Of a DNA stretch of 64,000 bases, positions 22,665-58,340 are shown one piece after another. Each line of letters opens with the position of its first letter. The first letter of the stretch is position 1. The notes under the pieces are model-generated. The model had not been told where the DNA came from, searched no databases, and saw nothing but the letters and a program-made list of their open reading frames with translations. Origin of the DNA: Staphylococcus phage AH12; sequence record OR455461.1; one strand, written 5' to 3'. The position numbers and the translations under genes are program-made.

Positions 22665-22834
22665 AATCTATATAAATATTATCATATAGACGAGACTATA
22701 TCATTACCATTTAAGGTAGAATATATTTAGTCGTTGAACAAATTATATTAATTTGATGCTGATTAATTTAATAATCTTCTCAGCAATTAATATTCTTTTC
22801 TATAAATCTCTCAATTTAAAGCGACTATTATTTA
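22665..22834 (-). ncRNA. compact group I intron B in the beta-prime gene (~170 nt)
   Basis: P AATTGCTGAG, Q AATCAGCATC, R GTTCAACGACTAAAT, S GATATAGTC and a P9 hairpin in canonical order. The element ends ...AAACG immediately before the YDGD exon. Confidence 0.6.
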
Positions 22835-22840
22835 ATCGGC
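22835..22840 (-). CDS. proposed 6-nt micro-exon GCCGAT (Ala-Asp) restoring NADYDGD
   Basis: Inference only. GCCGAT lies between the two intron cores, is preceded by ...CAAATG (a possible terminal G) and ends in T. Joining SNN + AD + YDGD reproduces the universal NADFDGD motif. Confidence 0.3.
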
Positions 22841-23041
22841 CATTTGTATTAACTTCATAGAGATTTTTCTATAAAGATTAGACTATATCAAACTCATATT
22901 AGTGAGTGAATTTATTTAGTCGTTGAACAATCATCTTGATTGATGCTGATTAATTTAATAATCTTCTCAGCAATTAAAATTCTTTTGACATTATATTACT
23001 ATAATGAAAGGCTACCTTTATAACCCATACCAGCAAGTATA
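22841..23041 (-). ncRNA. compact group I intron A in the beta-prime gene (~200 nt)
   Basis: Second copy of the P/Q/R/S core (core 22868-22986) immediately 3' of ...VVGISNN. The upstream exon's reading frame runs on into the intron and stops by chance at 23000. Confidence 0.55.
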
Positions 23042-24120
23042 TTATTACTAATACCTACTACTGATGATTCTATATCTTGAATTATATCTTTAATTTTCAA
23101 TATTTGAACAGAGCTTTCACTAATTGAGGGATTTCTATTTAAAATAACTCTCATTCCATTTTCAGTTTTATCAACTAGTTCTCTCATATATTTATATACT
23201 TTAGGATTAAATGTATCTAATGCTCTGTCTAATATTTCTTCACCTTTAGCTAAAGGAATATTTTCTGTTACATACATTAAATTTGCTAAGATAGGTTTAT
23301 ATACTTCTAAGAAGATAGTGTAATTTAATCTGATTTCATTTAATTTAAGGTCAGGTGCTGGAACAATTACTGAACGTGCAGAGAAACCAACACGACTACC
23401 CATTAGTAATTTACGAATAGTTCCACCTTTACCTTTAATATTCTCATTAATTACACGATCACTAATATTAATACTATCATTCTGAATTTTACTTAATAGA
23501 TTTAATTTTTGTAACTCCACTGAATCATCTGTATAATGTCTATCAAGTTCTTTAATACTATTACTATGTGCAATTAATAAATTATAATCTTTATTAATTT
23601 CAGAATGTCTAAAAGTTTTAGTAGCTTTGTTAACTGTAGCAGGTCTTAATTTAGGACTAAATACAGTTACATAATTTTGGAATAGTAAATCAGATAAATA
23701 CCATTGTACTACTCTATTGTAATCTTTAGTTTTACGTTTATCACGTTTAACTTCTTCTTTAAGAATTTTTAAGAAATTCTTTCTAAATTCAATTAAACCA
23801 ATATAAGAGTTATGATCATCTTCAGGTTCAATTACATTACCATTCTCATCAATAGGTTTTTCAGAACTAATAATTTCTTGGAATCTTTTATTACCAATTA
23901 ATTTTTTAACACGTTCATATCCTAATGGATTTAATATATAATTATTACCTAAATCTACAATAGCTTCATTAGTAATATTATCTGCTTCTGAATCAGGACC
24001 GAAGATTTTTTCACTGAAAATACCATCTTCAGTGAAATCTCCTTTTTTATCTATTGATTCATGATTAGTTACAACTGGAACATTTTCTAAATCCTTTTTC
24101 TTGAGTAAAAATCTAACCAT
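23042..24120 (-). CDS. RNA polymerase beta-prime N-terminal subunit, exon 1
   Basis: IKGKGGTIRKLLMGSRVGFSARSVIVPAPDLKLNEIRLNYTIFLEVYKP aligns to [46 protein letters not shown]. ...VILNRNPS aligns to VLLNRAPT. The exon stops just before the DFDGD loop. Confidence 0.65.
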
Positions 24121-24123
24121 AAC

Positions 24124-25746
24124 TTAATCTTCTCCCTCTTCTACAATTTCTTTAATGTCCATAACAACTTCTTGATCATCATTTTCTTTCTCTAATTTAT
24201 CAATATTTTCAATATCTTCAATTTCTTTGATATTAGGTTTATTTTCAAAATAGAATGAACCATTTTCACCAGGATCTTTAACTTCACAGAAAGGTGTTAA
24301 AGTACGAGTAATACCTGGATTATTTGATGAAGTAGCAATCAAATCAATTCTACCGAAATAAGTGTTATTGATATTGATTGTTCTAATAGATGGTTTACTA
24401 GTGTCTACAGCTGATTGTGGACCTGCTTTAGTCATTTTAAGAATTCTAGTAAATAAGTCAATTGTATTAACTGCATTAGAATAACGTATACCGTCAGAAG
24501 TTCCAATAGTCTTCAATAGATAATCTCTAGGTACTCCTGAGAATAATCCTTTAAGATTTTTAATTGTACGTTTTTTATCTGAGAAGTTAATCATACGATA
24601 TGAAGTATCAGAGTTTTTTCTATTCAGTGGATAAGTTAAATATTCTAATACTCTTAAACGTTTATTAGCTAAATCTGTATTATCTAATAAGTTAAGATTA
24701 TCAAAGTTCTTAAACATGTATTTAACCACATGATAAGTTGATTCTTTATCTTCTGATTCTAATCGTGATATAGCTTGAGTACGACTATCTAATATACGAT
24801 CAAATGAAAGTATCATTGAATTCGCTTTATCTATTTTAGTGTCAATATTAGTTGAACCACTGAAGATAGAACCTAAAGCTTTTAACCAGAATTCTCTATC
24901 GTATATTTTATCTAATCCCGCTCTCATTCCTTTGAATAAATCTTTAATACAAAGGATCATAGAATTTCTATAACGATCATCAACGTCTAACCATTCTTTT
25001 TCAACTTTTAAAGAAAGTTTATTATTAATTTTAAAGTAATAGTAATTATCTTCTTTTTCATCATTAATATCTATTACTTTACAATGGTCTTTAATTTCTA
25101 AGAATTCAAATGTTTCATCAAATCCCATTTTTGCAACAAAGAACATAAATGCTGGAACACTCTTATTTTTATTGAACACTTCTAGATATAGAGTTCTTCC
25201 TCTTTGGACATTATTCATCTTATTATCGTCATCCATAATAGTATCTTTTTTAGAACCATTGACTGATAGTGGTTGCAATAAGTTTTTCATTACTACAGTA
25301 CTAGCTTTTGGTTTATAAAATTCAGCATCTGCTAATTGTAGAATTGGGAAAAATTTGTTATTATTAATATAGTAGTATTGACCTTCAATAAGTTCAGGGA
25401 AATCTAATTTGTGTGTATATTCTTCTTTATTACCTTCTGAATCTTCAAATTCTACTGTAATTTGAACTTCTAGTAATTTAGATTCCTCAACATTAATTTT
25501 TCTGTAATCTTTAGATTTAAGTTGTTTATCTGTCATTTGATTAAATTCATAAACCTGACTTGGTGAAACGACTTTACAATCTAAGAATTTAATTCCTTTA
25601 ATAAATTCTACTGATCTATAAATGTCTGAAATGATTTTTTCTAAACTTTCATTTTGTCTGAAATAGATTACGTCTTCGTTAAATGGTTCTTTTTTGCTAA
25701 TGTCTTCGTTGATGTTCTTTGTAACTTTACTTAAGTATTTACTCAA
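24124..25746 (-). CDS. RNA polymerase beta subunit, N-terminal part (split-beta type)
   Basis: NTYFGRIDLIATSSNNPGITRTL aligns to [22 protein letters not shown]. 540 aa, ends before the NRALMG region. Confidence 0.65.
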   Translation of the reverse strand: MSKYLSKVTKNINEDISKKEPFNEDVIYFRQNESLEKIISDIYRSVEFIKGIKFLDCKVVSPSQVYEFNQMTDKQLKSKDYRKINVEESKLLEVQITVEFEDSEGNKEEYTHKLDFPELIEGQYYYINNNKFFPILQLADAEFYKPKASTVVMKNLLQPLSVNGSKKDTIMDDDNKMNNVQRGRTLYLEVFNKNKSVPAFMFFVAKMGFDETFEFLEIKDHCKVIDINDEKEDNYYYFKINNKLSLKVEKEWLDVDDRYRNSMILCIKDLFKGMRAGLDKIYDREFWLKALGSIFSGSTNIDTKIDKANSMILSFDRILDSRTQAISRLESEDKESTYHVVKYMFKNFDNLNLLDNTDLANKRLRVLEYLTYPLNRKNSDTSYRMINFSDKKRTIKNLKGLFSGVPRDYLLKTIGTSDGIRYSNAVNTIDLFTRILKMTKAGPQSAVDTSKPSIRTININNTYFGRIDLIATSSNNPGITRTLTPFCEVKDPGENGSFYFENKPNIKEIEDIENIDKLEKENDDQEVVMDIKEIVEEGED

Positions 25747-25907
25747 TTATCCGACACTCTCCCTCTTGGTAATAAAAACTTTATAAGATATGAGTTATTT
25801 CTGGTTTTTATTTTTTTACAAAATGAAAACTCATAACAATATTATATCATAAAACTTAGAAAAATGCTAGGAAAATAATACTATTTTTCTAAAAATTTTA
25901 AAAATAA

Positions 25908-26240
25908 ATGAAAGAAAGGAATCTAAAAATGAATAGACAAATTCAAGATCAAAAACATTTCTTCCGTGAATGGTCTAAACGAACTGGTTTATCTCAAAGA
26001 GAATTAGTCGATGCTTATTCAGAAATGATCGATATTTTAGTTGAATCAGCTAATGATTCAGATCAAACTAAAACTATTATTCCTGAAATTGGTGTTTTAG
26101 AAGTTAAACCTGAAGATATGCGTAAACGTAGAAATCCAAGAACTAATCAAATTGTAGTTACTGAACCTACACGTAAAGCACACATTCGTTTATATCCTAG
26201 ACTTAAAAATAGATTTAAACCTGAAGAACTAGAAAAATAA
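25908..26240 (+). CDS. HU/IHF-family (TF1-like) histone-like DNA-binding protein
   Basis: TGLSQRELVDAYSEMIDILVE...IPEIGVLEVKPEDMRKRRNPRTNQIVVTEPTRKAHIRLYPRLKN matches the HU fold pattern (GxFxV..R..R.GRNP.T...). Isolated + strand gene. Confidence 0.65.
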   Translation: MKERNLKMNRQIQDQKHFFREWSKRTGLSQRELVDAYSEMIDILVESANDSDQTKTIIPEIGVLEVKPEDMRKRRNPRTNQIVVTEPTRKAHIRLYPRLKNRFKPEELEK

Positions 26241-26290
26241 AAATAATTCAAAAGCCATAATATACTTATTTGTATATTATGGCAATTTTA

Positions 26291-26569
26291 TTATTCATTT
26301 TCATTAATGTCTTCTTTAGTTTCTTTTCTTTTAATAGTTAAATTAAGTACTTTTCTGAAAAATTTAATTTTAAGATTTAATAAGAAATTACTATCTGATT
26401 TAATCTTAACATCAAACTTCTGCTCTTTATCTTCTTCAGTTTCAGGTAAAGTAACAAATTCAAAGTCTACTCTTTCTAAGTCTTCTCTAGATAATAATTC
26501 TTTCTTTTGACTTTCATTAAGTTTTAACCCTAATCTTTTTTCTAATTTCTTTTGATTTCTTTTATTCAT
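26291..26569 (-). CDS. basic hypothetical protein
   Basis: 92-aa ORF. Confidence 0.45.
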   Translation of the reverse strand: MNKRNQKKLEKRLGLKLNESQKKELLSREDLERVDFEFVTLPETEEDKEQKFDVKIKSDSNFLLNLKIKFFRKVLNLTIKRKETKEDINENE

Positions 26570-26598
26570 ATTAATAAGTCATCTCCATATTATAATTA

Positions 26599-26982: not shown

Positions 26983-27016
26983 GATTGTTTTCTCCTTTGA
27001 TTGTCTTAATATATTA

Positions 27017-30669: not shown

Positions 30670-30671
30670 AA

Positions 30672-37573: not shown

Positions 37574-38194
37574 TTAAATAAAATTATCTTTTACTGCATA
37601 TTTATTCATTTCTTTAATTAATGATTCAACTATTTCTTCTTTTAATGAATCTAATAAAAACTTCTCTAAAGAATCTATAAATTGTTTGTATGTTAATTCT
37701 TTCCATTCTGATTTAATATTAATATATAAAGATCTTTGTCCTGAACTAAATGCTTCATATTCTTTATAAAATACTTTAGCAATTTCTTTGAATGTCTTCT
37801 TACTAATTATAGGTAATTCTTCTACATTATCTAAGAAGAAATAATATAGAGGATATACTTCATCTTCTGTATATATTTTAGAATCTATAGATATTTTTAT
37901 AGTATGTGCATCCAATTTTTCTTTACCACTATTGTTATACAGAGATATATCTCCTATTTCTAAATTATTTAAACTCATATCACTATTTTCCTCCATATCT
38001 TTAGATTTAGTAGAAGACGTTTTCCAAACTTCAGTAGTAGAAAAAAGATTATTTTGAGATGGAAGGTTATAATTTACTTTTTTTATATCTGTATGAACTC
38101 CAATATTATCTACATCTATATCAAATCTTTCAGCTAATTTTTTATATGTTTCCATAAAATCTTTATTAAAATCTCTATTAATTTTAATCACCAC
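37574..38194 (-). CDS. paralog-family protein (C-terminal ...KYAVKDNFI)
   Basis: 206 aa. Confidence 0.5.
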   Translation of the reverse strand: MVIKINRDFNKDFMETYKKLAERFDIDVDNIGVHTDIKKVNYNLPSQNNLFSTTEVWKTSSTKSKDMEENSDMSLNNLEIGDISLYNNSGKEKLDAHTIKISIDSKIYTEDEVYPLYYFFLDNVEELPIISKKTFKEIAKVFYKEYEAFSSGQRSLYINIKSEWKELTYKQFIDSLEKFLLDSLKEEIVESLIKEMNKYAVKDNFI

Positions 38195-38248
38195 TTTTTA
38201 TTAAATAAGGAGTAATGATGAATTTAATCATCATTACTCCAATTATAT

Positions 38249-38635
38249 TTATTTTGAATCTTCTTTAATTTCTTTAACTAAATTATTTATTTCTGTAGAT
38301 GTTAAATCTTTAATATCATCTACATTTTCGAATTTTTCCATTAAGAACTCTAATTGATCTGGAGAAAGATCCATAATTGAATAAAGATCTTCTTCTTCTG
38401 CTTTATTGTAATCAATACTAACATTTAATGGACTAAAGTAAGCATTAAGTACTTTAGTGTTGTTATTTTGATATCTTTTTTCAAATGTAGTATTTAATTT
38501 AAAAGGATTACCTGTATATAACTCTACTAATAAACGTTTTCTTAAGTCTTCATTATTAGAGTACATATTAGTTAATTCATTAATAGCTTTGATAGATCCA
38601 CCGATCATCATGTTAGTTGTTTCCATCTCACCGCA
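38249..38635 (-). CDS. RNA polymerase beta C-terminal gene #1, terminal exon (starts ..GEMETTNMMIGGSIKAINEL)
   Basis: The frame is open upstream of the first Met back to ...CGGTGAGATGGAA. GEME + 21 residues align to the universal [22 protein letters not shown] block. Preceded by an intron core ending ...AATAACTG. Confidence 0.55.
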   Translation of the reverse strand, partial: CGEMETTNMMIGGSIKAINELTNMYSNNEDLRKRLLVELYTGNPFKLNTTFEKRYQNNNTKVLNAYFSPLNVSIDYNKAEEEDLYSIMDLSPDQLEFLMEKFENVDDIKDLTSTEINNLVKEIKEDSK

Positions 38636-38781
38636 GTTATTCTAAATATTATTATTTAGCTAGACTATATCATTACCATTTAAGGTAGAATATATTTAGT
38701 CGTTGAACACTAATTAAAGTGATGCTGATTAATTTAATAATCTCTCAGCAATTAATATTCTTTACATTTATACATTTCTAT
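38636..38781 (-). ncRNA. compact group I intron (beta #1, core 38664-38761)
   Basis: P/Q/R/S core, the P3 pairing GAATA/TATTC and a P9 hairpin CTAAAT..ATTTAG. Confidence 0.55.
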
Positions 38782-38834
38782 ATAACGGAGCCTTTTATTT
38801 GACTCTGAGAGGATTGTTGTTTATTCTTGATCTG
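38782..38834 (-). CDS. proposed micro-exon (...KQQSSQSQIKGSVI) of beta #1
   Basis: Inference. The frame QIKNKQQSSQSQIKGSVI, joined to the terminal exon through a split ATC codon, gives QIKGSVIGEME, which aligns to [11 protein letters not shown]. The segment is locally richer in G+C than the flanking intron sequence. Confidence 0.35.
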
Positions 38835-39037
38835 TAAAACTTAGACATTTATATTAACTATATTTATTTAAAAAATAGATTAGACTATATCATTACCATT
38901 TAAGGTAGAATATATTTAGTCGTTGAACCTCTTATTTGAGGATGCTGATTAATTCAATAATCTCTCAGCAATTAATATTCTTTACATACATATTATTTCT
39001 AATACATGGGACACAAAATTTATCCGGTGTTCTTGTG
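38835..39037 (-). ncRNA. compact group I intron (beta #1, core 38882-38980)
   Basis: P/Q/R/S core with the hairpin variant TACCATTTAAGGTA. Confidence 0.5.
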
Positions 39038-39060
39038 GGAATACCACTGTAATTATTAAA
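39038..39060 (-). CDS. proposed micro-exon (..YSHKNTG) of beta #1
   Basis: Inference. TATTCCCACAAGAACACCGGAT encodes YSHKNTG, comparable to SRSMKTG in beta #2 and HARSTG in bacterial beta. Confidence 0.3.
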
Positions 39061-39262
39061 GTCAATTGATTTTGCACTTAATTTCTATTTTATTAATCTT
39101 TATAATATAATTTATAAAGTATAGACTATATCTTCATTCTATATTATAGAAGAACTATATTTAGTCGTTGAACACTATTTAAAGTGATGCTGATTATTTT
39201 ATTACTCTCAGCAATTAATAATTTAATAATTCTTTAATTTATATAAAGAACGGCAAATAATT
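39061..39262 (-). ncRNA. compact group I intron (beta #1, core 39122-39225)
   Basis: P/Q/R/S core. P8 hairpin variant CTTC...GAAG with compensatory substitutions. P9 hairpin CTTTATAAattataTTATAAAG. Confidence 0.5.
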
Positions 39263-39283
39263 TACCTGATGGTTCATGTTTTA

Positions 39284-40829
39284 CGAATCTATATTAACTT
39301 CATATAGATCCCAGACTATATCTTAAAGTCTATGAAGACCTTTCACTTATTTAGTCGTTGAAGCTCTTTAATTATATTTTCAATCTCTTTTAAATGGTCT
39401 TGTTTATAGTTTATTCTATAAAGAGGAATATTTTTATTGATACAATATTCATCTTTCATTTTATCTTTCATTCTAATCTCTTCTAATTTTTCTTTAGGAA
39501 ATCTGCTACTAGGATTTTTCCTAAAATGCTGTTCACCATCATATTCAATTAGTACATTATAATCTACTAAATAAAAATCAAATCTTAAATTTTGATTTAT
39601 TTTTAGATCTTCAAATGTTTTCTCAAACTCAACATTTGTATTCGTATCAATTAAATATTTTTCTATTTGACGGTGAGCTAATGAATTTGCATACTGTTTT
39701 GCACAAAAAGGACATTTATTTATAGAATCTTTAAAATATTCTGCTTTCATTTTAAAATTATTTCCACATTTTTTATGATGAAAATTGTAAATATTTTTAG
39801 TTCCCTTGAATTCATTATCTAGTATTAAATATTCATTTGAATTAAATTTTTTATTACATATTTCTAGAAATTCTTTTTTTGTTAAGAATTTATTCTCTAA
39901 GCTACAATGTGGACATTTATAATCATTATTTAACATATTATTTGCTAGCATATTAAAACTTCTGTTACATTTTTTATGAAGGAAATTATGTTTAGTTTTA
40001 ATTCCTTTAAACTTGTCATCTAATAATTCGTAATCATCATAATCTTTTCTATTTTCTTTCATTTTTTCATTAAATGACTTTTTATCGTATTTTAATAATT
40101 TAATTTTATCACAATTAGGACAAATAATAACATTATTTAAAAAACTTCCTCCGGTCATTTCAAATTCAGTTCCACAATCATCATGTTTAAATTTTGTTAT
40201 TTTAGAGAATCCATTATACTTTCCTAAAATAGAATACCCACTTATATTTTTCTCTTTTTTAGCCTTTTCTAAAAACTCTTCATTACTATATTTCACAGAG
40301 AAACAACAATTTGGGCATCGATTCATATTGTATAAAAATTCAGAACCTTTCATTGTAAAATATTTTCCACATTCTTCATGGTAAAACTTATGGTGTTTTT
40401 TAGTACTTTTAAAATCATCAATTAATTTATAACCTTCAGTACTTTTTCTTTTGTTTGCTTCTTCCATAAAAGTTTTATTATTGTATTTTAAACCATTTTC
40501 ACATTTAGGACATCTCTTAGAGTAATCTAAAAAACCTCTACCTGTCATTTCAAATTCAGTTCCACAATCAACATGTAATATTTTATGATTAAATTTATAA
40601 CCTTTATACTCTTCTAATAATTCATAATTTCCAATATTCTTTTCTTTTATTTTATTCATATATTCTTCATGTGTTAATTTTACCATTTATTTCCTCACCT
40701 TTCCAGACCAATAGAAAGGATTTTAATATAATTAAATTAGCATGCTGATTACTTTTAAAGCTTCTCAGCAATTAAAGTGATTTTTCATTTATTGTTACCA
40801 ATATAAGGAAGCTAAAACATAATTTGTCT
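39284..40829 (-). ncRNA. group I intron with a homing-endonuclease ORF in the P6 loop (beta #1)
   Basis: P AATTGCTGAG and Q AATCAGCATG lie at about 40745-40785. The ORF 39343-40686 follows Q. The ORF's stop codon lies inside the R element (CAACGACTAAATAAGTGA). S GATATAGTCTGG and a P9 hairpin follow at about 39290-39330. Confidence 0.55.
39343..40686 (-). CDS. intron-encoded homing endonuclease-like protein: 5 tandem Zn-ribbon modules + C-terminal PD-(D/E)xK (DUF559/Vsr-like) nuclease domain
   Basis: Five repeats of the pattern ...F.H..CG..F.M....FL....CP.C. C-terminal ...RFDFYLVDYNVLIEYDGEQHFR. Own ribosome-binding site AGGTGAGG. Embedded in the intron. Confidence 0.55.
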   Translation of the reverse strand: MVKLTHEEYMNKIKEKNIGNYELLEEYKGYKFNHKILHVDCGTEFEMTGRGFLDYSKRCPKCENGLKYNNKTFMEEANKRKSTEGYKLIDDFKSTKKHHKFYHEECGKYFTMKGSEFLYNMNRCPNCCFSVKYSNEEFLEKAKKEKNISGYSILGKYNGFSKITKFKHDDCGTEFEMTGGSFLNNVIICPNCDKIKLLKYDKKSFNEKMKENRKDYDDYELLDDKFKGIKTKHNFLHKKCNRSFNMLANNMLNNDYKCPHCSLENKFLTKKEFLEICNKKFNSNEYLILDNEFKGTKNIYNFHHKKCGNNFKMKAEYFKDSINKCPFCAKQYANSLAHRQIEKYLIDTNTNVEFEKTFEDLKINQNLRFDFYLVDYNVLIEYDGEQHFRKNPSSRFPKEKLEEIRMKDKMKDEYCINKNIPLYRINYKQDHLKEIENIIKELQRLNK

Positions 40830-41402
40830 TTACTTCAGGTGATACAAATCTCCAACCATAAATGTTCTATTACTAACATCTAGTCGGTTTTTCTTAATAT
40901 TGTATTTATTGAATAAGTATCTGATTTGTTCAGATTCAATATTATCAAAGAAAGGTGCTTGATGAAGTACAATACCATTTTTAATAAAGTCTTCAATAGC
41001 TTCTTTAGTTTCTTCACTATCTAAACTATCAAATAATCTTACATAATTATCATAAGATACTTTATCTGCATCTTTGATATATTCTAATAAATATTCTTTC
41101 TGCTTATTAACATCATCTAACTTACTAATACGATGTCTAATAACGCTTGAAATATGATTTAATTCTAATTCCACTAATGCTGAAGGATTTCCTCTATTAA
41201 TAATACCCATATTATTATGAATTAAGTCTACTCTTTTCTTAATAGGAGTTTTATTATCTTTGGTGAAATCTTCTCCATCAAATTCAGTAATCATTGGCAT
41301 TTCATTATCTGGAACAATCTTAGCTACTACACCTTTTCCACCGTATCTTGTGCTTATTTTTGCATTTATGTTAATGAACTTCATAGACTTTACTAAGAAG
41401 AT
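40830..41402 (-). CDS. RNA polymerase beta C-terminal gene #1, exon C (GRHGNKG region)
   Basis: AKISTRYGGKGVVAKIVPDNEMPMITEFDG aligns to [29 protein letters not shown]. The end ...MVGDLYHLK aligns to VGYMYMLKL. The frame is open 18 nt upstream of the ATG (IFLVKS). Confidence 0.6.
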   Translation of the reverse strand: MFLVKSMKFININAKISTRYGGKGVVAKIVPDNEMPMITEFDGEDFTKDNKTPIKKRVDLIHNNMGIINRGNPSALVELELNHISSVIRHRISKLDDVNKQKEYLLEYIKDADKVSYDNYVRLFDSLDSEETKEAIEDFIKNGIVLHQAPFFDNIESEQIRYLFNKYNIKKNRLDVSNRTFMVGDLYHLK

Positions 41403-41537
41403 CAGACTATATCATTACCTTCATATAAGGTAGAATATATTTAGTCGTTGAACACTATTTATAGTGATGCTGATTAATTTTATAATTCTCAGCAATTAAT
41501 ATTCTTTACATATAAATTTTCATTCATAAGGGACCTA
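41403..41537 (-). ncRNA. ultra-compact group I intron (~135-145 nt; core 41404-41505)
   Basis: P/Q/R/S core, P3 pairing GAATA/TATTC, P6 pairing CACTA..TAGTG. The element ends with the S element + G directly before exon C. The 5' boundary is uncertain by a few codons. Confidence 0.55.
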
Positions 41538-42115
41538 TTAATTTGATCCATGCACTAAAGGTTTCTTCTCTAATACTTTAACTCTAAATACGATTTTATC
41601 AAATTGATTTCCATCATATACAAGTTTAGCATTAGGATCAATGTAGCTCTTAAATCTATTATAAGTTCTAATTAAATCATTACTAAATTTCTTCTTACGT
41701 ACAATATCATCAGTAACAGTTACAAATGTACGGTAGAAGTGTTCTAAATCTTTGATATATTTTAGGAATTGTTCAGAGTACTTTTCATTCTCTAATTTTT
41801 CAATTGATTCATTGTTAAGTACATCAATATCAATAACTTTACCATGCAATTTATAAGCGTTATCACTTTCAACAATTTTAGATAACATATCATTTTTAAA
41901 TTTATGGATTAACTCATCATAATTTAATCGTCTTGTTGCAGTTAATACACCGTCTTTAATTTCTTCACCAACGTCTGGAAATGCTTTATAATATTCTTCA
42001 TCTCCATAAATATTTAAAGGAATATCATTTGTATTTATAGTTACATTAACTACATGAACGAAATAACTTGACATTTTCTCAGCTAATGATTCTGATACAA
42101 CAATACCATCTTCCT
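41538..42115 (-). CDS. RNA polymerase beta C-terminal gene #1, exon B
   Basis: EDGIVVSESLAEK... and ...GEEIKDGVLTAT align to DSGVTAVAKRGGVV ... GEPVERGDVLADG. The end KIVFRVKVLEKKPLVHG aligns to KIVKVYLAVKRRIQPG. It begins right after the element's terminal ...CCTATAG. Confidence 0.6.
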
Positions 42116-42262
42116 ATAGGTTATAATTAATAAAATTATACCATAGACTATATCATTACCGTTTAAGGTAGAATATATTTAGTCGTTGAACACTGTTTTT
42201 AGTGATGCTGATTAATTTAATAACATCTCAGCAATTAATATTCTTTACATACATAAATTTCT
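42116..42262 (-). ncRNA. ultra-compact group I intron (~147 nt; core 42146-42242)
   Basis: P, P5, Q, P6, R, P3', P8 (TACCGTTTAAGGTA), S and P9 (GGTATAATT..AATTATAACC), then TATAG followed by the exon. Only about 22 nt is available for P1/P2. Confidence 0.55.
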
Positions 42263-42814
42263 TTATGCAGGAACAAAGTTAATTTTATTCGTGAATCCTT
42301 TATCTGGTAAAAATACTGAAGTAGCATTTGTACCATATTGGAAATTATTTGATTCTTCATCATAGTTTTGATCTTTATAAAGTACTTCATTTTTATTAAC
42401 ATTACTACCAATTTCTAAAGAATCAATTTTTTCATTTTGATATTTATTACCAAATTTCTCAGCTAAATGATTAGCTTCTTCTCTAATAATGATATCATAC
42501 TCATCATTATCTTTATACTTCACTAAATAGTATTTTACATATTTATTCTTTTCAAATATAAAAATAACTTCAAAATCTCTTTCAGCTTTCTTATAACCAG
42601 TTGAATATTTACCTACTTGATTCTCAAAACCAGTTTGAATTAATGGTGGTTCAGCTTCAGTTAATTGAATACATTGACCTATATGTGAAGTGAACATTTG
42701 TGATCTGTTACCATTAGTTCTATTAACATTAGGCATTAATAGTAATTCTGATAAAAATTCATGACTTTTCTTATCTTCAATCTCTTGCATTCTTTGTGTT
42801 CTTTCCTTTGTCAT
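42263..42814 (-). CDS. RNA polymerase beta C-terminal gene #1, exon A (region F)
   Basis: NGNRSQMFTSHIGQCIQLTEAEPPLIQTGFENQ aligns to ANRALMGSNMQRQAVPLL..EAPLVGTGME. Confidence 0.6.
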   Translation of the reverse strand: MTKERTQRMQEIEDKKSHEFLSELLLMPNVNRTNGNRSQMFTSHIGQCIQLTEAEPPLIQTGFENQVGKYSTGYKKAERDFEVIFIFEKNKYVKYYLVKYKDNDEYDIIIREEANHLAEKFGNKYQNEKIDSLEIGSNVNKNEVLYKDQNYDEESNNFQYGTNATSVFLPDKGFTNKINFVPA

Positions 42815-42851
42815 CCTATAAACACTCTCCCTGTAATATAAAAGATAATAT

Positions 42852-42898
42852 GGAATAATATTCTCTTATTATTCCACATTTTTATAATATATATTTAA
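42852..42898 (-). promoter_or_regulatory. conserved hairpin + TATATATTATAA intergenic element
   Basis: GGAATAATATTCTCTTATTATTCC hairpin followed by CATTTTTATAATATATATTTAAT. Confidence 0.45.
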
Positions 42899-42970
42899 TA
42901 ATAATTTTGTGCAATGGAATGGATCCAATGACAACTATTCATGTCATTGGATATTCCATTTTAAATATAA

Positions 42971-44290
42971 TTAACCTTTTTCTACTTCAACCTCATTTTT
43001 ATCTGAATCATAGTATTTTCCATCTGAACCTAACCAAATATCTTCTTCACTATTAATACATTCTACCAAATCTAACTCTTCTTCATCTAAACTTGATTCA
43101 TGTTCAATTGAAGCTAAGAATTTATCTTTATAGATATTTCTAATGTATTTATCAAAGTACTCTTGGAAATCTTTGTTTCCTTCGTATTTCTCTTGGAAAG
43201 TTTTAAGTGTAAAACTTACATCATCATAACCATCAATACGATAAGCACGAGGATTACCTTTTAATAATTTTTGTTCTTGTAAATATAATAAGTTTGATAG
43301 AGTATTATTAAATCCATCTTTTTGTTCAAAGATTAAATTAAATTTAGCTCCAGCTGCATTTGAACGTGATTTAATAACTTCAACTGTATTGATAAAACCT
43401 TTAATTCCATATTTAGCTTGATTAGAACTTCCTTCTGGATCTAAAGCTTGTGATGGACTAATCTTAAACATGTTATTTGCCATATAGTTGATTGCTTTAC
43501 CACCTGGTAGTGCTTCACCTTGTTTGAGATAATTTAATTCTTTCGGTGTAGCTGCATAAGGATTAATATCAATTTTAGTTGTAATATGGTTAATTAAAAT
43601 AAGCATAATATTAGCCGAGTTTAATGTAGATGAACCAATAATACGTTTAATAAAGTTAGTATTATCTTTGGCTTGTTTGGTAGCATTCATTTGACCACCT
43701 TCACCATCTTTATCATCAATTTCTTTAGATGCCATTGTAGCAACAGAGTCAATAATAACTACTGTAGGTGCCATATAAGATACTTTTTCACCAGTCTCTG
43801 GATCAATTTTATCTGTATGAATAGTAAATTCTTCTTCACTTTCTAATTTAGTATCACGAATGCCACGAATTAATTGATCTACTGAATCTAAACTAATCTT
43901 TTTATTTAATTTAGTGTATTTATCTTGTTTCATTTGTTTAGACCAACCAGTTAATTGATAAATACGTTCATCAGTAGTTGCATCCTCAAAGTCATAATGA
44001 ATGATACTAGCATTTTCAAATGGTTCAACAATTTTAGCTGCAGCTTGAATTGCTAATGTTGTTTTACCTGAACCCGATCCACCAATAAATGTTGTAACTT
44101 TACCACCCATTAAACCAATACGTTCATCATCAGTTACAGTATTTAAAAAACCATTTCTATAATCTAATAAGTTGATTCCTGATTCATACATTGGTGTATA
44201 ATTATCTTCTTTACCATATACGTTAGGGTTTGATTTGATTAAATCATGAATTTTACTTGTTAATTTTGCCATTGAAATTTCACTCTCCAA
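42971..44290 (-). CDS. RecA/RadA-family ATPase (recombinase- or helicase-loader-like)
   Basis: Walker A motif TFIGGSGSGKTTLAIQAAAK. 439 aa with an acidic C-terminal tail. Confidence 0.5.
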   Translation of the reverse strand: MESEISMAKLTSKIHDLIKSNPNVYGKEDNYTPMYESGINLLDYRNGFLNTVTDDERIGLMGGKVTTFIGGSGSGKTTLAIQAAAKIVEPFENASIIHYDFEDATTDERIYQLTGWSKQMKQDKYTKLNKKISLDSVDQLIRGIRDTKLESEEEFTIHTDKIDPETGEKVSYMAPTVVIIDSVATMASKEIDDKDGEGGQMNATKQAKDNTNFIKRIIGSSTLNSANIMLILINHITTKIDINPYAATPKELNYLKQGEALPGGKAINYMANNMFKISPSQALDPEGSSNQAKYGIKGFINTVEVIKSRSNAAGAKFNLIFEQKDGFNNTLSNLLYLQEQKLLKGNPRAYRIDGYDDVSFTLKTFQEKYEGNKDFQEYFDKYIRNIYKDKFLASIEHESSLDEEELDLVECINSEEDIWLGSDGKYYDSDKNEVEVEKG

Positions 44291-44587: not shown

Positions 44588-44615
44588 TAAAAGGTTTCTC
44601 CTTTCTAAAAAAAAA

Positions 44616-44668
44616 AATATATTAACTCAACCTAACCCATTTATATAAATGAGTTAGGTTGAGTTTTT
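44616..44668. terminator. hairpin terminator flanked by A-run and T-run
   Basis: AACTCAACCTAAC / GTTAGGTTGAGTT inverted repeat, then TTTTT. Confidence 0.5.
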
Positions 44669-45161
44669 AATTTAATTTTGTAAATTTAAGATCTATATCG
44701 TAATTATTATTAAGTTCATTGACTTTCTTAACTATTTTATGAGCACAATAATCGTAATTAGTTTTATCCAACAATATATTGAGTTCTTCAATGAAATATT
44801 TATTTAAACGATACATATCTGGGTTTTCTTCTTTTAATTCTATTAATTTATTATTTGTAATTTCTATTTCTTCATTTATTCTTTTTCGAATGAATTCTAA
44901 ATCATTAATATACACTTTACGTTTTTCTAAATCAAATACTATAGCTGGTTTATTTAAAAAAGTTAAAGTCATTTTTCCATCTTCATCAATGACATTGTAA
45001 TTATAAGAAAAGTATTTCATATCAATTGTTAAGTGATCTAGAATAAAAGGCATGAATAATTCATAATTTAAAAATTGACCCATATCTTTCTGTATTTTAT
45101 TTATAATTTTATATTTGGATTCAATTTCTTTTATATTCTTTAATATTTCTTTATTATCCAT
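44667..45161 (-). CDS. hypothetical protein
   Basis: 164 aa. Confidence 0.5.
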   Translation of the reverse strand: MDNKEILKNIKEIESKYKIINKIQKDMGQFLNYELFMPFILDHLTIDMKYFSYNYNVIDEDGKMTLTFLNKPAIVFDLEKRKVYINDLEFIRKRINEEIEITNNKLIELKEENPDMYRLNKYFIEELNILLDKTNYDYCAHKIVKKVNELNNNYDIDLKFTKLN

Positions 45162-53833: not shown

Positions 53834-54493
53834 TTAAATATTTGAATCCCAATAATAACTATTTTTAGATTTTAATAAAAAGTTATTACTTATAGAATTC
53901 CTTATATTATGTGTAATATTTTCATTTCCAACTAAAGACCATATAGTGTATATAAAAATTGATTTAAAAGTATAACCTCTATCATCTTCATTTAATATAT
54001 CTTTTTTATACTGTAATAATTCTTTAAATTCGAAATATTTATTTATAATATCATCTACACTAAATTCAGGTATATATTTACTTCCAGATACATATAGTAT
54101 TGCAGAAACTTTAATTATATATTTTTCTAAATCGGATTCTTTAATATTCTCATTTCTTATCTCATCTAACATCTCCATCAATCTCTGTTCGTACGTTAAA
54201 TGAGGTTTATGATTATTAAAACCAAAACGATTTATTTCATCATTAACTCTATTTTCTATATTATCTAGTCTTCTTTTTAGATATTTATCATTTCTATTAA
54301 TTTGTCTTCTATAATCTTCACTAAGATTAATTGATGTATGACCATAATGATTATCTCTATTATATATTCCTGAATTCATTCCATTAATAATACTATTCAT
54401 TTGTCTTTCTATATTTTCATTACTTCTATCATGTATATTATCTAAACTATTTATTAAATAATCAAAATCTTCTTGCATTCCCATATTTTTCAC
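53834..54493 (-). CDS. hypothetical protein
   Basis: 219 aa. Confidence 0.5.
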   Translation of the reverse strand: MKNMGMQEDFDYLINSLDNIHDRSNENIERQMNSIINGMNSGIYNRDNHYGHTSINLSEDYRRQINRNDKYLKRRLDNIENRVNDEINRFGFNNHKPHLTYEQRLMEMLDEIRNENIKESDLEKYIIKVSAILYVSGSKYIPEFSVDDIINKYFEFKELLQYKKDILNEDDRGYTFKSIFIYTIWSLVGNENITHNIRNSISNNFLLKSKNSYYWDSNI

Positions 54494-54501
54494 CTCTTAC
54501 T

Positions 54502-55659
54502 CTATTTGGAATATTCTTTAAATTCTTCAATATCATTTAGTCTTTTCTGTTCTACTAATTTTTTATGAAGATTTTTAATAAATTTTTTCTTCTCTTTATC
54601 ATTTAATCTATAATTAGTTTCTATCATGTTAGACCAATGATTTTTATCTAGATCTCTATCAATTCTTTTATCTTCAAGATAACTTAAATTATCATTTCTT
54701 CTTTTAATATCGGAAAGCACATATTTCAATAATCCTTCAGTGTTAAAAGAAACTTTTTCAACTTTTATATCATATAAATATAAATACAATTTTTTATCAA
54801 TAAGAGATTCATTATTTAAAGATTCATGTTTAAAGAATATTTCAGAATTTTCATCCATATGATAATATTTGTACTGTCTGCTATTAAAGAAAGCCAATTC
54901 ATTATTGGATTGGTTTATGAAAAATTCTGGGCGATATATTAATCTCATTTCATTGCCGCTATTTTCATGAAATTGTAATTCATGTTTTTTAATATAGACA
55001 TTTTGATTTTCATCCACTATAACTAATTGAATCTTCTCATTTACTTCAACTAGTCCAATTAAAATTTTAGTTCCGAGAAAAGAATACTTATACATTTTAT
55101 TAATATAGTCAGAATGAAGTTCAAAAGAAGATTTTTCTAATTTAGGTAATTCATTTATATCCCTGTCTATTAAATCTTTAAATTGTCTAATAAAATTATT
55201 ATCATCCTTTTTCATTTCATCTATATTTTTATAGAATGTATTTAATAATAATATTGGTAACATTTCAAATGACATTTCATAATCAAATAATTTACCTTTT
55301 TCAAATGGATCTATTGCAAAATGTGATGTTTGTGATGGATCTTTGTCTAATCTAGCATCAAATATTGGTATATCAATATTTCTGTTAAACTCTAATTCTG
55401 GGTGACTTAATAAATAATGTAAAGAATAATATCTTTCTTTTCCATCGAAAGCATTTTCTAATTTATATGAATGATTAAGTTTATTCATTAATCTTTCTTC
55501 ATCTAAAGTTATTAATTCTTCAGCTTCTTTAAATTTTTTATCTTCATTATTACCTATTTTTCTTTTATTTTTTCTAAAAATAATATTTGAAATTACTATT
55601 GTAGTGATTCCCCCTACAATACCAGTTCCTGAAAATGCATATAACAAAATATCAGACAT
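54502..55659 (-). CDS. N-terminally anchored protein, paralog of 48732-50060
   Basis: Shared ERYYSLHYLLSHPELEF and HWSNMIETNYRLNDKEKKKFIKNL. Confidence 0.55.
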   Translation of the reverse strand: MSDILLYAFSGTGIVGGITTIVISNIIFRKNKRKIGNNEDKKFKEAEELITLDEERLMNKLNHSYKLENAFDGKERYYSLHYLLSHPELEFNRNIDIPIFDARLDKDPSQTSHFAIDPFEKGKLFDYEMSFEMLPILLLNTFYKNIDEMKKDDNNFIRQFKDLIDRDINELPKLEKSSFELHSDYINKMYKYSFLGTKILIGLVEVNEKIQLVIVDENQNVYIKKHELQFHENSGNEMRLIYRPEFFINQSNNELAFFNSRQYKYYHMDENSEIFFKHESLNNESLIDKKLYLYLYDIKVEKVSFNTEGLLKYVLSDIKRRNDNLSYLEDKRIDRDLDKNHWSNMIETNYRLNDKEKKKFIKNLHKKLVEQKRLNDIEEFKEYSK

Positions 55660-55677
55660 ACATTTATTCCTCCTTTC

Positions 55678-55968
55678 TTAGTTGAAATGTTGATCTCTAA
55701 TTTCTTCAGCTATTTCTTTTGTTGCTTCTGAGTTTGATTTCCCTAATTCTTCTATCTTTTTAGCTAAGTAATAATTAACATCAGTTTTATCCATTTCCAT
55801 ATATAATTTTAAAATTTTTTCTCTTTCTGGAACTCCTAAATTTAAATATTCAACCTCATTTCTTTGAGTTACACTGTTATAATCACATTCAAATAAATAA
55901 TTACTTATCGCATTTAACTTGTTTACGTCTAAGTATTTTTCTATTTGACTTATTTTGTCAGAAACCAT
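55678..55968 (-). CDS. small protein, paralog of 52202-52459
   Basis: 96 aa. Confidence 0.5.
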   Translation of the reverse strand: MVSDKISQIEKYLDVNKLNAISNYLFECDYNSVTQRNEVEYLNLGVPEREKILKLYMEMDKTDVNYYLAKKIEELGKSNSEATKEIAEEIRDQHFN

Positions 55969-56076
55969 TTATTTCCCACTCCTTAAAATTTATAATTTAT
56001 TTATTTGTACAAAAAATTAAAATAATAAGGATAATGACTAAATAGTCATTATCCAAATTTTAAATATTAATTTATA

Positions 56077-56358
56077 TTATAATAATCTTCTTTCTTCCTG
56101 AATATATATTACTTTATTTCTGTTGATTGTAATTCTCTTTTCATCAACCAATTCAATCTCTATGAAGTCCTCATTCCCTTCATATAATCCATGGAAAATT
56201 CTATCAATGGAATTTGATTCACTATTCAATACATGATAAGCGTCATATCTTAAATCATTCATAGTTATGGTTTTTCCTTCTAGGTATTCACTTTCATAAA
56301 ATTCAATTTTTTCTCCATTTTCAAGTGCCATAATATAAACTTTAACTTTAGTTTTCAT
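56077..56358 (-). CDS. hypothetical protein
   Basis: 93 aa. Confidence 0.45.
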   Translation of the reverse strand: MKTKVKVYIMALENGEKIEFYESEYLEGKTITMNDLRYDAYHVLNSESNSIDRIFHGLYEGNEDFIEIELVDEKRITINRNKVIYIQEERRLL

Positions 56359-56374
56359 AATTAATTCTCCTATT

Positions 56375-56722
56375 CTATATTTGATTATTTTGTTTTAAAT
56401 GAGGTATTAAATCATCATATACATAATTATCTACTCTAATTCCAAAATCCTCAGATGAATCTGTTACCAATATATTATTGAATGTGAATTCATCTTCAAA
56501 TAATAAAGATTTATCAGAAGTATCAATTCTAAATATTCCCTTTATATTGACTGTGTTGTTATAGTTATTTTCATATTCTATGTCTTCGAAAACTAAATAA
56601 ACGTTCTCATCATATTTCTCGCTGTATACTTTCCAAAATCTGTATAAAGATGATTCAATATCCACTCTACCCAATATTTCATTTATAGAATTTAACTCTG
56701 CTTTTTCATAATCTTTACTCAT
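56375..56722 (-). CDS. hypothetical protein
   Basis: 115 aa. Confidence 0.45.
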   Translation of the reverse strand: MSKDYEKAELNSINEILGRVDIESSLYRFWKVYSEKYDENVYLVFEDIEYENNYNNTVNIKGIFRIDTSDKSLLFEDEFTFNNILVTDSSEDFGIRVDNYVYDDLIPHLKQNNQI

Positions 56723-56807
56723 ATCTAATTCACTCTCCTATTTAAAATAATAATAATAGATAATAACTTTTTTAATTATTATCTATTATTTAGTTCATTG
56801 AAATCAT

Positions 56808-57098
56808 TTATCTAATGACTTCTTTAATTTCTTGTAATGCATAATATCCTGGGTTAAATACATGCATTAATCCATATCCAAATAAAGCTAAATCAATTCC
56901 AATAACTAAAATAACGATCAATACAATGATAGGTGATAAGTTACCCATGACATTTAATTTTTTAAATGCATAATACAAAATAGCAAATACGATTAAACTT
57001 AATAAAACTAAACCTAATCCTACGAAAACTTGATGTGTTACTAATGCACTCCAACTTGTACCTGCTGCCTTTTCTACTGAACTTGTTAATTCTTTCAT
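56808..57098 (-). CDS. membrane protein (2 transmembrane helices)
   Basis: 96 aa. Confidence 0.45.
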   Translation of the reverse strand: MKELTSSVEKAAGTSWSALVTHQVFVGLGLVLLSLIVFAILYYAFKKLNVMGNLSPIIVLIVILVIGIDLALFGYGLMHVFNPGYYALQEIKEVIR

Positions 57099-57233
57099 AT
57101 CTATTACCTCCTGTTTTTTATTAGAAAGATAATGATTGATATTATCATCATCTCATTATAATAATATATGCTTAAAATACATTTAATTTCAATATAATAG
57201 AGGTAATGACAAGTTAATGTCATTACCTCTTTA

Positions 57234-57384
57234 TTCACCTTAGTAAGTAAAATACTATTACTATAACTAAAATTGCAACTACAATTCCAGACCATCCCAC
57301 AGGTGGTATTATTGCTAATGGTCCACGGAATATAATACCTAGTATTAATAAAATTACTAGTATAGCTATTAACCAAGTAATCAT
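57234..57384 (-). CDS. very small membrane protein (49 aa, missing from the ORF track)
   Basis: MITWLIAILVILLILGIIFRGPLAIIPPVGWSGIVVAILVIVIVFYLLR read from the sequence. Follows a GGTAATGAC-type hairpin. Confidence 0.3.
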
Positions 57385-57450
57385 ATAGTTACTCCTTTCT
57401 TAATCTCCATATATTATGAGATATAAGGATAAAAGGTTGTTTTATAATTA

Positions 57451-57750
57451 TTATTCTTCTTGATCATAATCAGTTCTAGTATCTTTAAGTAAATCTGAAT
57501 CTATACCAGCACCTAATAAATAATAGTAAGTGGTATTCAAAGTAGTTTTATCAGAAAGATCGTCTGGTAAATCTTCTAGACGAGTATAACCATACATTGA
57601 AATGTTTTTATTCATTTCCTGTTTAGCATTCATAGAGTCTGAACGAGGACCCATTAATTCTCTTAATATATCTTGAGACCCAATTGCTCTTAATGCTGAA
57701 GCTTCCATATTTGATACAGAAGCTACCTTGTCCGCACCTGAGAGTTGCGA
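57451..57750 (-). CDS. RNA polymerase beta C-terminal gene #2, terminal exon (starts ..QLSGADKVASVSNMEASALRAIGSQDILRELMGPRSDS)
   Basis: The frame is open upstream of the Met. QLSGADKVASVSNMEASALRAIG..LRELMGPRSDSMNAKQEMNKNI aligns to [48 protein letters not shown]. Confidence 0.6.
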   Translation of the reverse strand, partial: SQLSGADKVASVSNMEASALRAIGSQDILRELMGPRSDSMNAKQEMNKNISMYGYTRLEDLPDDLSDKTTLNTTYYYLLGAGIDSDLLKDTRTDYDQEE

Positions 57751-57897
57751 TTATCCTATATATTTCTATATAAGTCAGACTATATCTTATACTCTTTATG
57801 AGTACCATTATATTTAGTCGTTGAACAATCAATTTGATTGATGCTGATTAACTTTAATTTTCTCAGCAATTAATAATATTATCATTATCATATTACT
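57751..57897 (-). ncRNA. ultra-compact group I intron (beta #2, core 57777-57880)
   Basis: P/Q/R/S core. P9 hairpin TATATAGAAATATATA with a GAAA tetraloop. The element ends ...GGATAATCG before the exon. Confidence 0.5.
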
Positions 57898-58020
57898 ATA
57901 ATAAGCGGCCAAAATTTTTTCATTAAAACCGGTTTTCATTGATCTCGAGGAAGCGTCTAGACTGTATGCGTTTTTCTTTGAGAGGAGCTGCTGTACAATA
58001 ACTTCATACACTATTTTTAA
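57898..58020 (-). CDS. RNA polymerase beta gene #2, internal mini-exon (~120 nt; ..LKIVYEVIVQQLLSKKNAYSLDASSRSMKTGFNEKIL..)
   Basis: Locally G+C-richer island flanked by intron cores. SRSMKTG aligns to ARSTG. The ORF-track entry 57829-58011 reads through into the intron. Boundaries approximate. Confidence 0.4.
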
Positions 58021-58161
58021 TTAGTGTTTAGACTATATATTCATCCTATTAGGAGTTTTAATTTTAGTCGTTGAACTTTATTAAGATTATTCACTTAATA
58101 TTAGATGCTGATTAGCTTCATAAACTTTCCCAGCAATTTAAAAAATTTTACATATACATTA
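58021..58161 (-). ncRNA. ultra-compact group I intron (beta #2, core 58030-58140)
   Basis: P/Q/R/S core. P has TTGCTGGG, which gives a G-U wobble with Q, a change tolerated only at the RNA level. Confidence 0.45.
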
Positions 58162-58205
58162 CTGCATAAGGAGGCTACAACAGTATTTAACCTCTTAACA
58201 TGTAA
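58162..58205 (-). CDS. proposed micro-exon (..HVKRLNTVVASL..) of beta #2
   Basis: Inference. HVKRLNTVV aligns to MLKLNHLVD of bacterial beta. A G+C-richer island between two intron cores. Confidence 0.3.
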
Positions 58206-58340
58206 GTCATTTATCTTTACTATATTCATTTTATAGATGAGACTATATCTTCTTTGCCATATATTTAGTCGTTGAACAATTCAATTGATGCTGATCAACT
58301 TTAAATGTCTTTTCAGCAGTTAATATGATTTTAATTGAGC
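58206..58340 (-). ncRNA. ultra-compact group I intron (beta #2, core 58242-58325)
   Basis: P/Q/R/S core with correlated P and Q substitutions (CTGCTGA / GATCAGCATC). P9 hairpin CTATAaaatgaaTATAG. Confidence 0.45.

Follow-up and report, generated by a model that had tools for sequence, protein, structure and literature searches.

Group I introns in RNA polymerase genes are already known from phage AR9, and introns predicted by alignment are known from the Staphylococcus phage Machias. In AR9, the beta'-N gene of the non-virion RNA polymerase (nvRNAP), gp269, is a two-exon join around a group I-like intron that carries an HNH open reading frame (ORF), gp270, and the AR9 genome paper reportedly showed splicing of AR9 introns. 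The closest precedent for related introns chained in a single gene is Twort orf142, which contains three group I introns of subgroup IA2; the exons between natural group I introns can be short, with 23 nt in Twort orf142 and 34 nt in the Coxiella 23S rRNA (PMC10136302). The preprint of Korn et al. (bioRxiv 10.1101/2020.12.14.422802) describes introns predicted in MarsHill, Madawaska and Machias by protein alignment. Here we analysed a stretch of 64,000 nt from Staphylococcus phage AH12 (OR455461.1; hereafter the window), which has a G+C content of about 23% and contains eleven copies of a repeat of about 100 nt. We propose with high confidence that the eleven repeats are the catalytic cores of cis-splicing group I introns, all members of one recently expanded family. 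Over positions 38000-43000, Machias and vB_StaM_PB50 are 94-95% identical to the window, and MarsHill, Madawaska, LY01, S6, PALS_2, DC4 and SA1 about 81%. These relatives, like the phage of the window, are AR9/PBS1-like Staphylococcus jumbo phages, a group with two multisubunit RNA polymerases.

The 13-mer TTCAACGACTAAA occurs exactly eleven times in the window, on the minus strand every time, at positions 22726, 22915, 38695, 38915, 39160, 39350, 41440, 42178, 57813, 58063 and 58264. Allowing up to two mismatches gave 15 matches against 3.1 expected, a number reached by none of 100 shuffles. Each copy is adjoined by AATCAGCATC with at most one mismatch, and likewise by GATATAGTC. A general repeat search of the window recovered the same family as four repeat groups. 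The covariance model R1, built from three 99-nt cores, found ten complete copies in the window (E-values 2.5e-24 to 3.2e-05) and both halves of the eleventh, which is split by an ORF. The sole other R1 match in the window, at 25512-25609 on the plus strand (20.8 bits, E 0.085), lies opposite the nvRNAP beta-N gene and is probably due to chance. An earlier note on this DNA had reported eleven copies and proposed a search with a custom model, and R1 indeed recovers the same set. Its core coordinates agree with the R1 matches to a few bases, except for a difference of 12 at one end of 22868-22986, and the split copy it gave at 39314-39323 plus 40735-40790 is correct.

Searching the window by tblastn with the S6, SA1 and PALS_2 proteins revealed that each of three polymerase genes, which are uninterrupted in these three phages, is broken into blocks with the repeats lying between them. 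The boundaries were set by requiring U as the last nucleotide of the 5' exon and G as that of the intron. Once the eleven segments are removed, the three frames are open throughout, with lengths of 437, 713 and 680 aa, compared with 437, 714 and 680 aa in the uninterrupted homologues of S6 and SA1, and the alignment is gap-free at all eleven junctions. Every copy thus sits in a gap of a conserved polymerase alignment, as had been claimed, and its excision gives full-length, gap-free frames. The introns, previously estimated at about 135-200 nt, measure 147-194 nt in ten cases and 1548 nt in one. The suggestion that they are chained with micro-exons between them was borne out by exons of 6, 18 and 20 nt; the full set of short exons between introns comprises 6, 20, 63, 44, 18 and 68 nt, and two longer internal exons of beta-C have 568 and 531 nt. 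Junction phases 0, 1 and 2 are all represented. Predicted junction-spanning peptides of the spliced products include ...ILAGMGADYDGDTL... and ...VPVGYLHVKRLQQLL....

The nvRNAP beta'-N gene (22448..24120, minus strand, as are all features of the three genes) consists of exons 24120-23023, 22840-22835 and 22654-22448. The spliced product of 437 aa is identical to that of the uninterrupted S6 gene at 388 of 437 positions without gaps, and matches the Pfam family RNA_pol_Rpb1_2 (Rpb1 domain 2; E 4.4e-11). Intron bpN-i1 (22841..23022, 182 nt, group I) is preceded by ...GGUAUGGGU, carries the guide GCCU, and scores 24.8 bits against the Rfam group I model RF00028 (Intron_gpI). It is followed by the 6-nt micro-exon GCCGAU (22835..22840), which encodes the Ala-Asp of the catalytic ADYDGD motif of beta' and is required to restore GMG-AD-YDGD as in S6. 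Intron bpN-i2 (22655..22834, 180 nt, group I, 36.9 bits) comes next, and its guide GUCG pairs with CGAU of the micro-exon. The same GCCGAU exon is found in Machias and in a metagenome relative, L157.

The nvRNAP beta-C gene (38249..42814) has seven exons, 42814-42287, 42113-41546, 41362-40832, 39283-39264, 39084-39022, 38845-38802 and 38633-38249. Its spliced product has 713 aa against 714 aa in S6, has no internal stop, is gapless at the six junctions, and matches Pfam RNA_pol_Rpb2_6 (Rpb2 domain 6; E 9.8e-10). The first two introns are bC-i1 (42114..42286, 173 nt, 21.7 bits with RF00028) and bC-i2 (41363..41545, 183 nt, 42.3 bits). They are followed by the long bC-i3 (39284..40831, 1548 nt), where an endonuclease ORF in the P6 loop divides the family core. 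A 20-nt micro-exon (39264..39283) leads to bC-i4 (39085..39263, 179 nt, 16.3 bits), which has a variant P3 (AAUUAU/AUAGUU), a variant P8 and an L2 that is not a GNRA loop. A 63-nt exon (39022..39084), bC-i5 (38846..39021, 176 nt, 33.6 bits), a 44-nt exon (38802..38845) and bC-i6 (38634..38801, 168 nt, 42.4 bits, E 2.1e-09, whole model aligned) complete the chain.

The beta-N gene of the virion polymerase (vRNAP; 57451..60011) comprises exons 60011-58355, 58207-58190, 57995-57928 and 57747-57451. The spliced frame of 680 aa equals the length of the uninterrupted SA1 protein and has no internal stop; it matches phrog_3233, 'RNA polymerase beta subunit' (1.6e-36), and its counterpart is named virion polymerase beta-N in Machias. 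The smallest intron, vbN-i1 (58208..58354, 147 nt, guide GCUCAA, 26.0 bits), is without P2 and P8. An 18-nt micro-exon (58190..58207) separates it from vbN-i2 (57996..58189, 194 nt, 48.4 bits), which has a long P6 and a G-U wobble in P4. A 68-nt exon (57928..57995) precedes vbN-i3 (57748..57927, 180 nt, 35.4 bits).

The same arrangement might be read as polymerase genes split into small separate polypeptides, and the repeats between them as REP-, MITE- or terminator-like elements that undergo no splicing. Jumbo-phage polymerase subunits are indeed known as separate genes, PB50 (L001) annotates its beta-C exons as four separate proteins, and the unjoined beta'-N gene of Machias (CPT_Machias_002, L008:1352-2473) ends at an in-frame stop inside bpN-i1. 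However, neither a start codon nor a ribosome-binding site is present in the coding segments of 6, 18, 20 and 44 nt. These cannot be separate genes, yet the residues that they encode, among them the Ala-Asp of ADYDGD, are exactly those that the alignment would otherwise lack. The three junction phases, the U/G boundary rule in eleven of eleven introns, the group I covariation described below, and the uninterrupted genes of S6, PALS_2 and SA1 also argue against it. We consider this explanation very improbable; the micro-exons, the junction phases and the U/G rule effectively exclude a non-intron reading.

Inspection of the boundaries revealed a U before the 5' splice site and a terminal G (omega-G) in all eleven introns, in agreement with the earlier observation that each element ends in G directly before the resuming exon. 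Among the shifts that would yield the same spliced RNA, exactly one boundary per intron fits this rule, and in six introns the boundary has no positional slack. With background frequencies of 0.334 for T and 0.146 for G, a U/G match is expected by chance at about 0.05 per boundary. In addition, each intron has a guide sequence 10-20 nt inside it, which starts with G and pairs with the end of its own exon; the eleven guides are GCCU, GUCG, GUUC, GUCC, GCUUC, GCC, GUCC, GCUC, GCUCAA, GCCUC and GCCG, and the initial G is followed by 2-7 more nucleotides complementary to the exon. In a test that admits G-U pairs, the guides fit their cognate exons better than non-cognate ones (summed anchored helix length 51, permutation p = 0.00036). 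P10, judged by eye, looks plausible in introns such as bC-i1 but seems to be missing in others such as bC-i2, and was excluded from the evidence.

The group I elements P, Q, R and S occur in canonical order, with AUUGCUGAGA, AAUCAGCAU, UUCAACGACUAAA and GAUAUAGUCU in every copy as the earlier note had it, and they match the consensus columns of RF00028 (GUUCAaAGACUAAA, AAGAUAUAGUCu). The core helices P3, P4, P5, P6, P7 and P8 are complete in ten of the eleven copies, the remaining one being without P8. On the coding strand, the core of bC-i6 reads from its 5' side P3 GAAUAU, J3/4 UAAU, P4 UGCUGA, J4/5 GA, P5 GAUU/AAUU and J5/4 AA; then P4' UCAGCA, P6 CACU/AGUG, and J6/7 with P7 UUCA-A[C]GACUA; and finally P3' AUAUUC, P8 UACC/GGUA, J8/7 AUGAUA and P7' UAGUC-U. 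The sequence permits a P7 in which A-[C bulge]-GACUA pairs with UAGUC-U, placing a G-C pair beside the bulge, which may form the guanosine-binding site.

For the covariation analysis, 36 cores were aligned, 33 of them distinct; they come from the window, from two viral contigs and from the phages Machias, PB50, MarsHill and LY01. In this alignment, which was fitted to the model structure, the 33 distinct cores have standard pairs in 96.2% of cells, and 19 of the 30 pairs show changes on both sides. The alignment has a covariation score of 0.424, compared with 0.124 after shuffling, where none of 500 shuffles reached 0.424, and at most 0.077 when the partners were slid. Pairs changed on both sides include all six of P3, all four of P5, three of four in P6, all four of P8 and two of six in P4. 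P7, the pairing of R with S, is present and invariant across the 33 cores, and is thus supported by conservation only. The sequences of P2 and P9 differ from copy to copy, and P2 is usually short and capped by a GNRA tetraloop. With mononucleotide shuffles as reference, folding was better than the shuffle mean for every one of the ten P2 regions and for nine of the eleven P9 regions (mean z about -2.7). When only the P7 strands were kept unpaired, the minimum-free-energy (MFE) fold contained the complete P1-P2-P3-P4-P5-P6-P8-P9 set in bpN-i1, bC-i1 and bC-i2. Unconstrained folds gave z = -2.26 for bC-i1 and z = -3.99 for bpN-i1, and the latter MFE fold contains P1, P2, P4-P6, P7, P8 and P9. 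The P3, P6, P8 and P9 pairings noticed before are thus upheld, by compensatory changes in P3, P6 and P8 and by mostly better-than-shuffled folds for P9; the hairpins keep their pairing while their sequence changes, and the G-U wobble reported in P4 of one copy is real and belongs to vbN-i2.

Based on the sequence architecture, the covariation, the splice-site rules, the restored frames and the intron-less alleles, we infer that the segments are spliced, that the RNA catalyses this reaction, and that it may do so autonomously. In the sequence, the U at the 5' splice site forms a wobble pair with the first G of the internal guide to make P1. The stripped-down core has P3, P4, a P5 of 3-5 bp, P6, P7 and P8, with a P3-P7 pseudoknot, and is followed by the P9 hairpin. 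In the proposed reaction after transcription, exogenous guanosine would attack the 5' splice site, and the freed exon would then attack after the terminal G, joining the exons. Three genes for essential polymerase subunits would thereby regain open frames, and the joined 6-nt exon would supply the Ala-Asp of the catalytic Asp-triad motif. Group I-like ribozymes could also merely cleave or process the transcript, as branching ribozymes of the GIR1 type do, and the GIR1 ribozyme is likewise small. However, each copy has a complete P1 with its U-G pair and a terminal G, frame restoration is exact, Rfam scans of window stretches gave no GIR1 match, and cleavage alone would destroy essential genes. 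This possibility is even more remote than that of split genes, and cis-splicing is the reading we retain; the group I interpretation of the earlier note thus holds.

The search with RF00028 that had been proposed gave a divided result. Both the Rfam default scan and a lax-threshold scan of 37 kb returned no group I match. When stretches of 0.5-1 kb were scanned instead, RF00028 was the top match for all ten short introns, aligned over its full length (positions 1-253) with 16.3-48.4 bits and E-values of 3.4e-11 to 0.14, nine of the ten being at or below 0.005. The default scans miss the introns because these scores lie below the gathering score of 50 bits, and the misses in long stretches are attributed to filter loss, as short stretches do give matches. 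The alignment is full-length, whereas P5, P6 and P8 are much shorter here than in the model. The shortfall concerns an annotation criterion and not a biological one; the family is recognisably group I yet invisible to routine annotation.

The reduced form is best seen in vbN-i1, which has no P8, because just GCAAAGAA separates P3' from J8/7, and no P2, because P1 runs nearly straight into P3. P8 is normally counted in the conserved group I core. Further cores without P8 were found in Machias (the ortholog of vbN-i1), at three LY01 sites and in two metagenome contigs. A GNRA-capped P2 lies upstream of 25 of 33 cores with P8 and of none of seven cores without it (Fisher p 0.00035, for samples that are not phylogenetically independent). 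In the Azoarcus intron, L2 is a GNRA tetraloop that docks on P8. By analogy with such compact introns, the co-occurrence suggests that L2 and P8 form a tertiary contact whose two partners were lost together.

Several points weigh against the splicing group I reading. All ten RF00028 scores are under the gathering threshold. The fitting of the alignment biases the covariation counts towards the model, and many of the aligned cores are orthologous or recent copies and not independent samples. The helices are short and AU-rich, so that autonomous folding may be marginal, and the 147-nt form is without P2 and P8. The exon-side P1 helix is frequently only 3-4 bp, and in the guide test 4-bp non-cognate helices are common (46%). 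In the literature we found no characterised precedent for a 6-nt exon that must act as 3' exon for the intron before it and also pair in P1 of the intron after it.

Autonomy is the main uncertainty, as minimal AU-rich helices may need protein help or low temperature. The introns could derive from group I introns that are no longer autonomous and splice in vivo with a phage or host protein as maturase or chaperone, or at low temperature; the 147-nt copy without P2 and P8 would then be the most dependent. Such dependence would agree with the very small, AU-rich core that has no peripheral stabilising domains, with the sub-threshold Rfam scores, with the existence of the minimal form, and with the inefficient plaquing or growth of these phages at 37 °C described by Korn et al. 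On the other hand, the catalytic core is intact, with the P7 bulge beside a G-C pair, J8/7, J6/7 and the P3-P7 pseudoknot; the co-occurrence of the GNRA L2 with P8 suggests that the introns have kept tertiary contacts of their own; and the temperature phenotype is not linked to intron load in the data considered. We therefore regard loss of autonomy as unlikely, though it deserves serious consideration, and keep self-contained group I splicing as the preferred reading.

Intron bC-i3 differs from the others by the homing-endonuclease ORF in its P6 loop (39343..40686, minus strand, 447 aa), whose last codons at the 3' end overlap the R element and P7. The protein has repeated CxxC zinc-ribbon modules followed by a C-terminal nuclease-like domain, which includes ...LIEYDGEQHF..., and four internal DNA repeats of about 81 nt at 39698-40576 correspond to the modules. 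Its best PHROG match is phrog_559, 'HNH endonuclease' (1.3e-69), and it also matches phrog_9084, 'homing endonuclease', and phrog_7140, 'intron encoded nuclease'. Endonucleases that combine CapR-like repeats with an EDxHD/Vsr-like domain have recently been described in introns of polymerase genes of AR9-like phages; they have 3-5 modules, each of about 60 aa, and at the C-terminus a nuclease domain of about 100 aa (PMC12350094). The ORF of bC-i3 resembles this description in its architecture and is a candidate member of that family.

Blastn with one intron found 29 places in Machias, 21 in PB50, 33 in LY01, 12 in Madawaska and 10 in MarsHill, and zero in S6, PALS_2, DC4 and SA1. The occupied beta-C sites differ among the window, Machias, PB50, MarsHill and LY01. 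The repeats had been placed entirely inside RNA polymerase genes. This holds for the window, where all eleven lie in the nvRNAP beta'-N, nvRNAP beta-C and vRNAP beta-N genes, but not for LY01, where copies are also found beside gyrB and other genes. The LY01 copies beside gyrB fit the intron-disrupted genes listed by Korn et al., namely polymerase, DNA polymerase, gyrB, terminase and prohead protease.

A family-specific pattern gave zero matches in IMG/VR and zero in 185,579 bacterial and archaeal genomes, and matched 8 metagenome contigs; a looser pattern gave 21 viral loci, two of them weakly matching R1. One metagenome contig (L157, Ga0079226_10064759, 445-2083) carries an independent ortholog of nvRNAP beta'-N with 87% amino-acid identity, which retains both introns, the 6-nt exon and both guides, with compensatory changes in P3, P4 and P6. 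A third family intron lies upstream, making three in all, one more than in the window. The family is a recent, lineage-restricted expansion, and the ten ORF-less copies of the window presumably owe their spread to homing endonucleases acting in trans or to reverse splicing. The gene of a retron-type reverse transcriptase (in LY01, L153:23311-24813) was considered as an explanation of the spread; it is present in all nine Staphylococcus jumbo phages, the four intron-free ones included, and does not discriminate, because it occurs with or without the introns.

The R...S motif was rejected as a family marker, since it is a general group I consensus that occurs in more than 120 viral contigs, including giant-virus bins; those tested contain ordinary introns of 189-383 nt with 53-110 bits. 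Rfam-positive group I matches of only 189 nt (L012:2590-2778, 57.5 bits) and 199 nt (L058:2746-2944, 59.9 bits) were seen in other large viral contigs, from IMG/VR, and compact group I introns in big phages may be commoner than the literature suggests.

Several other features of the window were observed. An AT-rich repeat family occurs at 6490-6557, 16121-16188, 16815-16882, 17802-17869 and 42858-42910. Its reverse complement includes TATATTAT, the core of AR9-type early promoters according to the accessible part of Korn et al., and the copy at 42858-42910 lies directly upstream of the nvRNAP beta-C start codon (42814, minus strand). A near-perfect palindromic hairpin at 44604-44677 gave one match per strand to the plant MIR405 model, far below its threshold (E 0.013 and 0.069); the MIR405 assignment is certainly spurious, and the hairpin may be a bidirectional terminator. 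The minus strand at 1811-2400 contains long repeat runs of the GAA/GAT type in an acidic low-complexity coding region. Tandem units at 9197-10592, 13704-14983 and 16087-17884, with a spacing of 500-990 nt and 63-87% identity, look like tandem paralogous small genes.

Current records truncate or fragment essential polymerase subunits, and a family-specific model fixes the missed introns. The GenBank entry of Machias joins beta-C from six pieces and vRNAP beta-N from three; the latter locus has three intron cores and should therefore have four exons. Because the beta'-N protein deposited for Machias ends at the stop in bpN-i1, it is missing ADYDGD and its final 71 residues. The exons of 6-20 nt between near-identical introns raise questions of splice-site choice, splicing order and the avoidance of exon skipping. 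The ten near-minimal natural group I cores come with built-in variation, and the variant without P2 and P8 indicates what nature tolerates removing. We put forward, as a tentative proposal, that these are the smallest natural active group I ribozymes (147-194 nt, one without P2 and P8), chained around a 6-nt active-site exon in an ORF-less lineage that has transposed recently and repeatedly. If this is true, the phages would offer a tractable, culturable system for a mobility pathway that is still without direct experimental proof. Dozens of recent copies at different sites with adapted guides, together with intron-free sisters, amount to a natural experiment on colonisation by ORF-less introns.

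The introns predicted in Machias, MarsHill and Madawaska, the closest relatives, are the same elements as those of the window. In the accessible part of Korn et al., the boundaries come from protein alignment only, and the introns are given neither a class nor a structure, with no mention of a repeat family or of splice rules. Several points appear to be new. The introns are assigned to group I on the strength of a structure that covariation supports; they are compact, and one form has neither P2 nor P8; some of the exons between them have only 6-20 nt; and their copy numbers follow a distinct pattern among the relatives. The corrections to the annotation of Machias and PB50 are new as well.

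The comparison with AR9 introns proposed by the earlier note gave both similarities and differences. The gp269 intron interrupts the same host gene and the same DYDGD motif as the beta'-N introns of the window, and has R and S elements (GGUUCAACGACUAUCG, AAGAUAUAGUCUGA), an endonuclease ORF and partial RF00028 matches. However, it is inserted after DYDG, whereas the introns of the window follow GMG and AD, and it is larger, about 0.85 kb with a larger periphery. As a member of the compact family it was rejected (R1 at most 12.3 bits, E 0.48).

Similar to the introns of the window, those of Twort orf142 are several related group I introns chained in one Staphylococcus phage gene and separated by a short exon, with a risk of exon skipping. 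A blastn match to a Twort-like phage over the R-S region suggests a shared core sequence. The Twort introns have about 250 nt, compared with 147-194 nt. The introns of the window have no room for P7.1/P7.2, with at most one hairpin between the 3' strands of P3 and P7. The Twort exon of 23 nt compares with exons of 6, 18 and 20 nt, and in contrast to Twort, up to six introns are found per gene in the window and about 10-33 copies per genome in five intron-bearing relatives. The tRNA-Ile intron of Azoarcus (IC3) is also compact, consisting of P2 and P3-P9 only, without the P5abc extension. However, it is GC-rich and very stable and resides in a tRNA anticodon loop, whereas the introns of the window interrupt protein-coding genes, have a core G+C of 22-29%, and are 11-58 nt shorter than the approximately 205 nt of Azoarcus.

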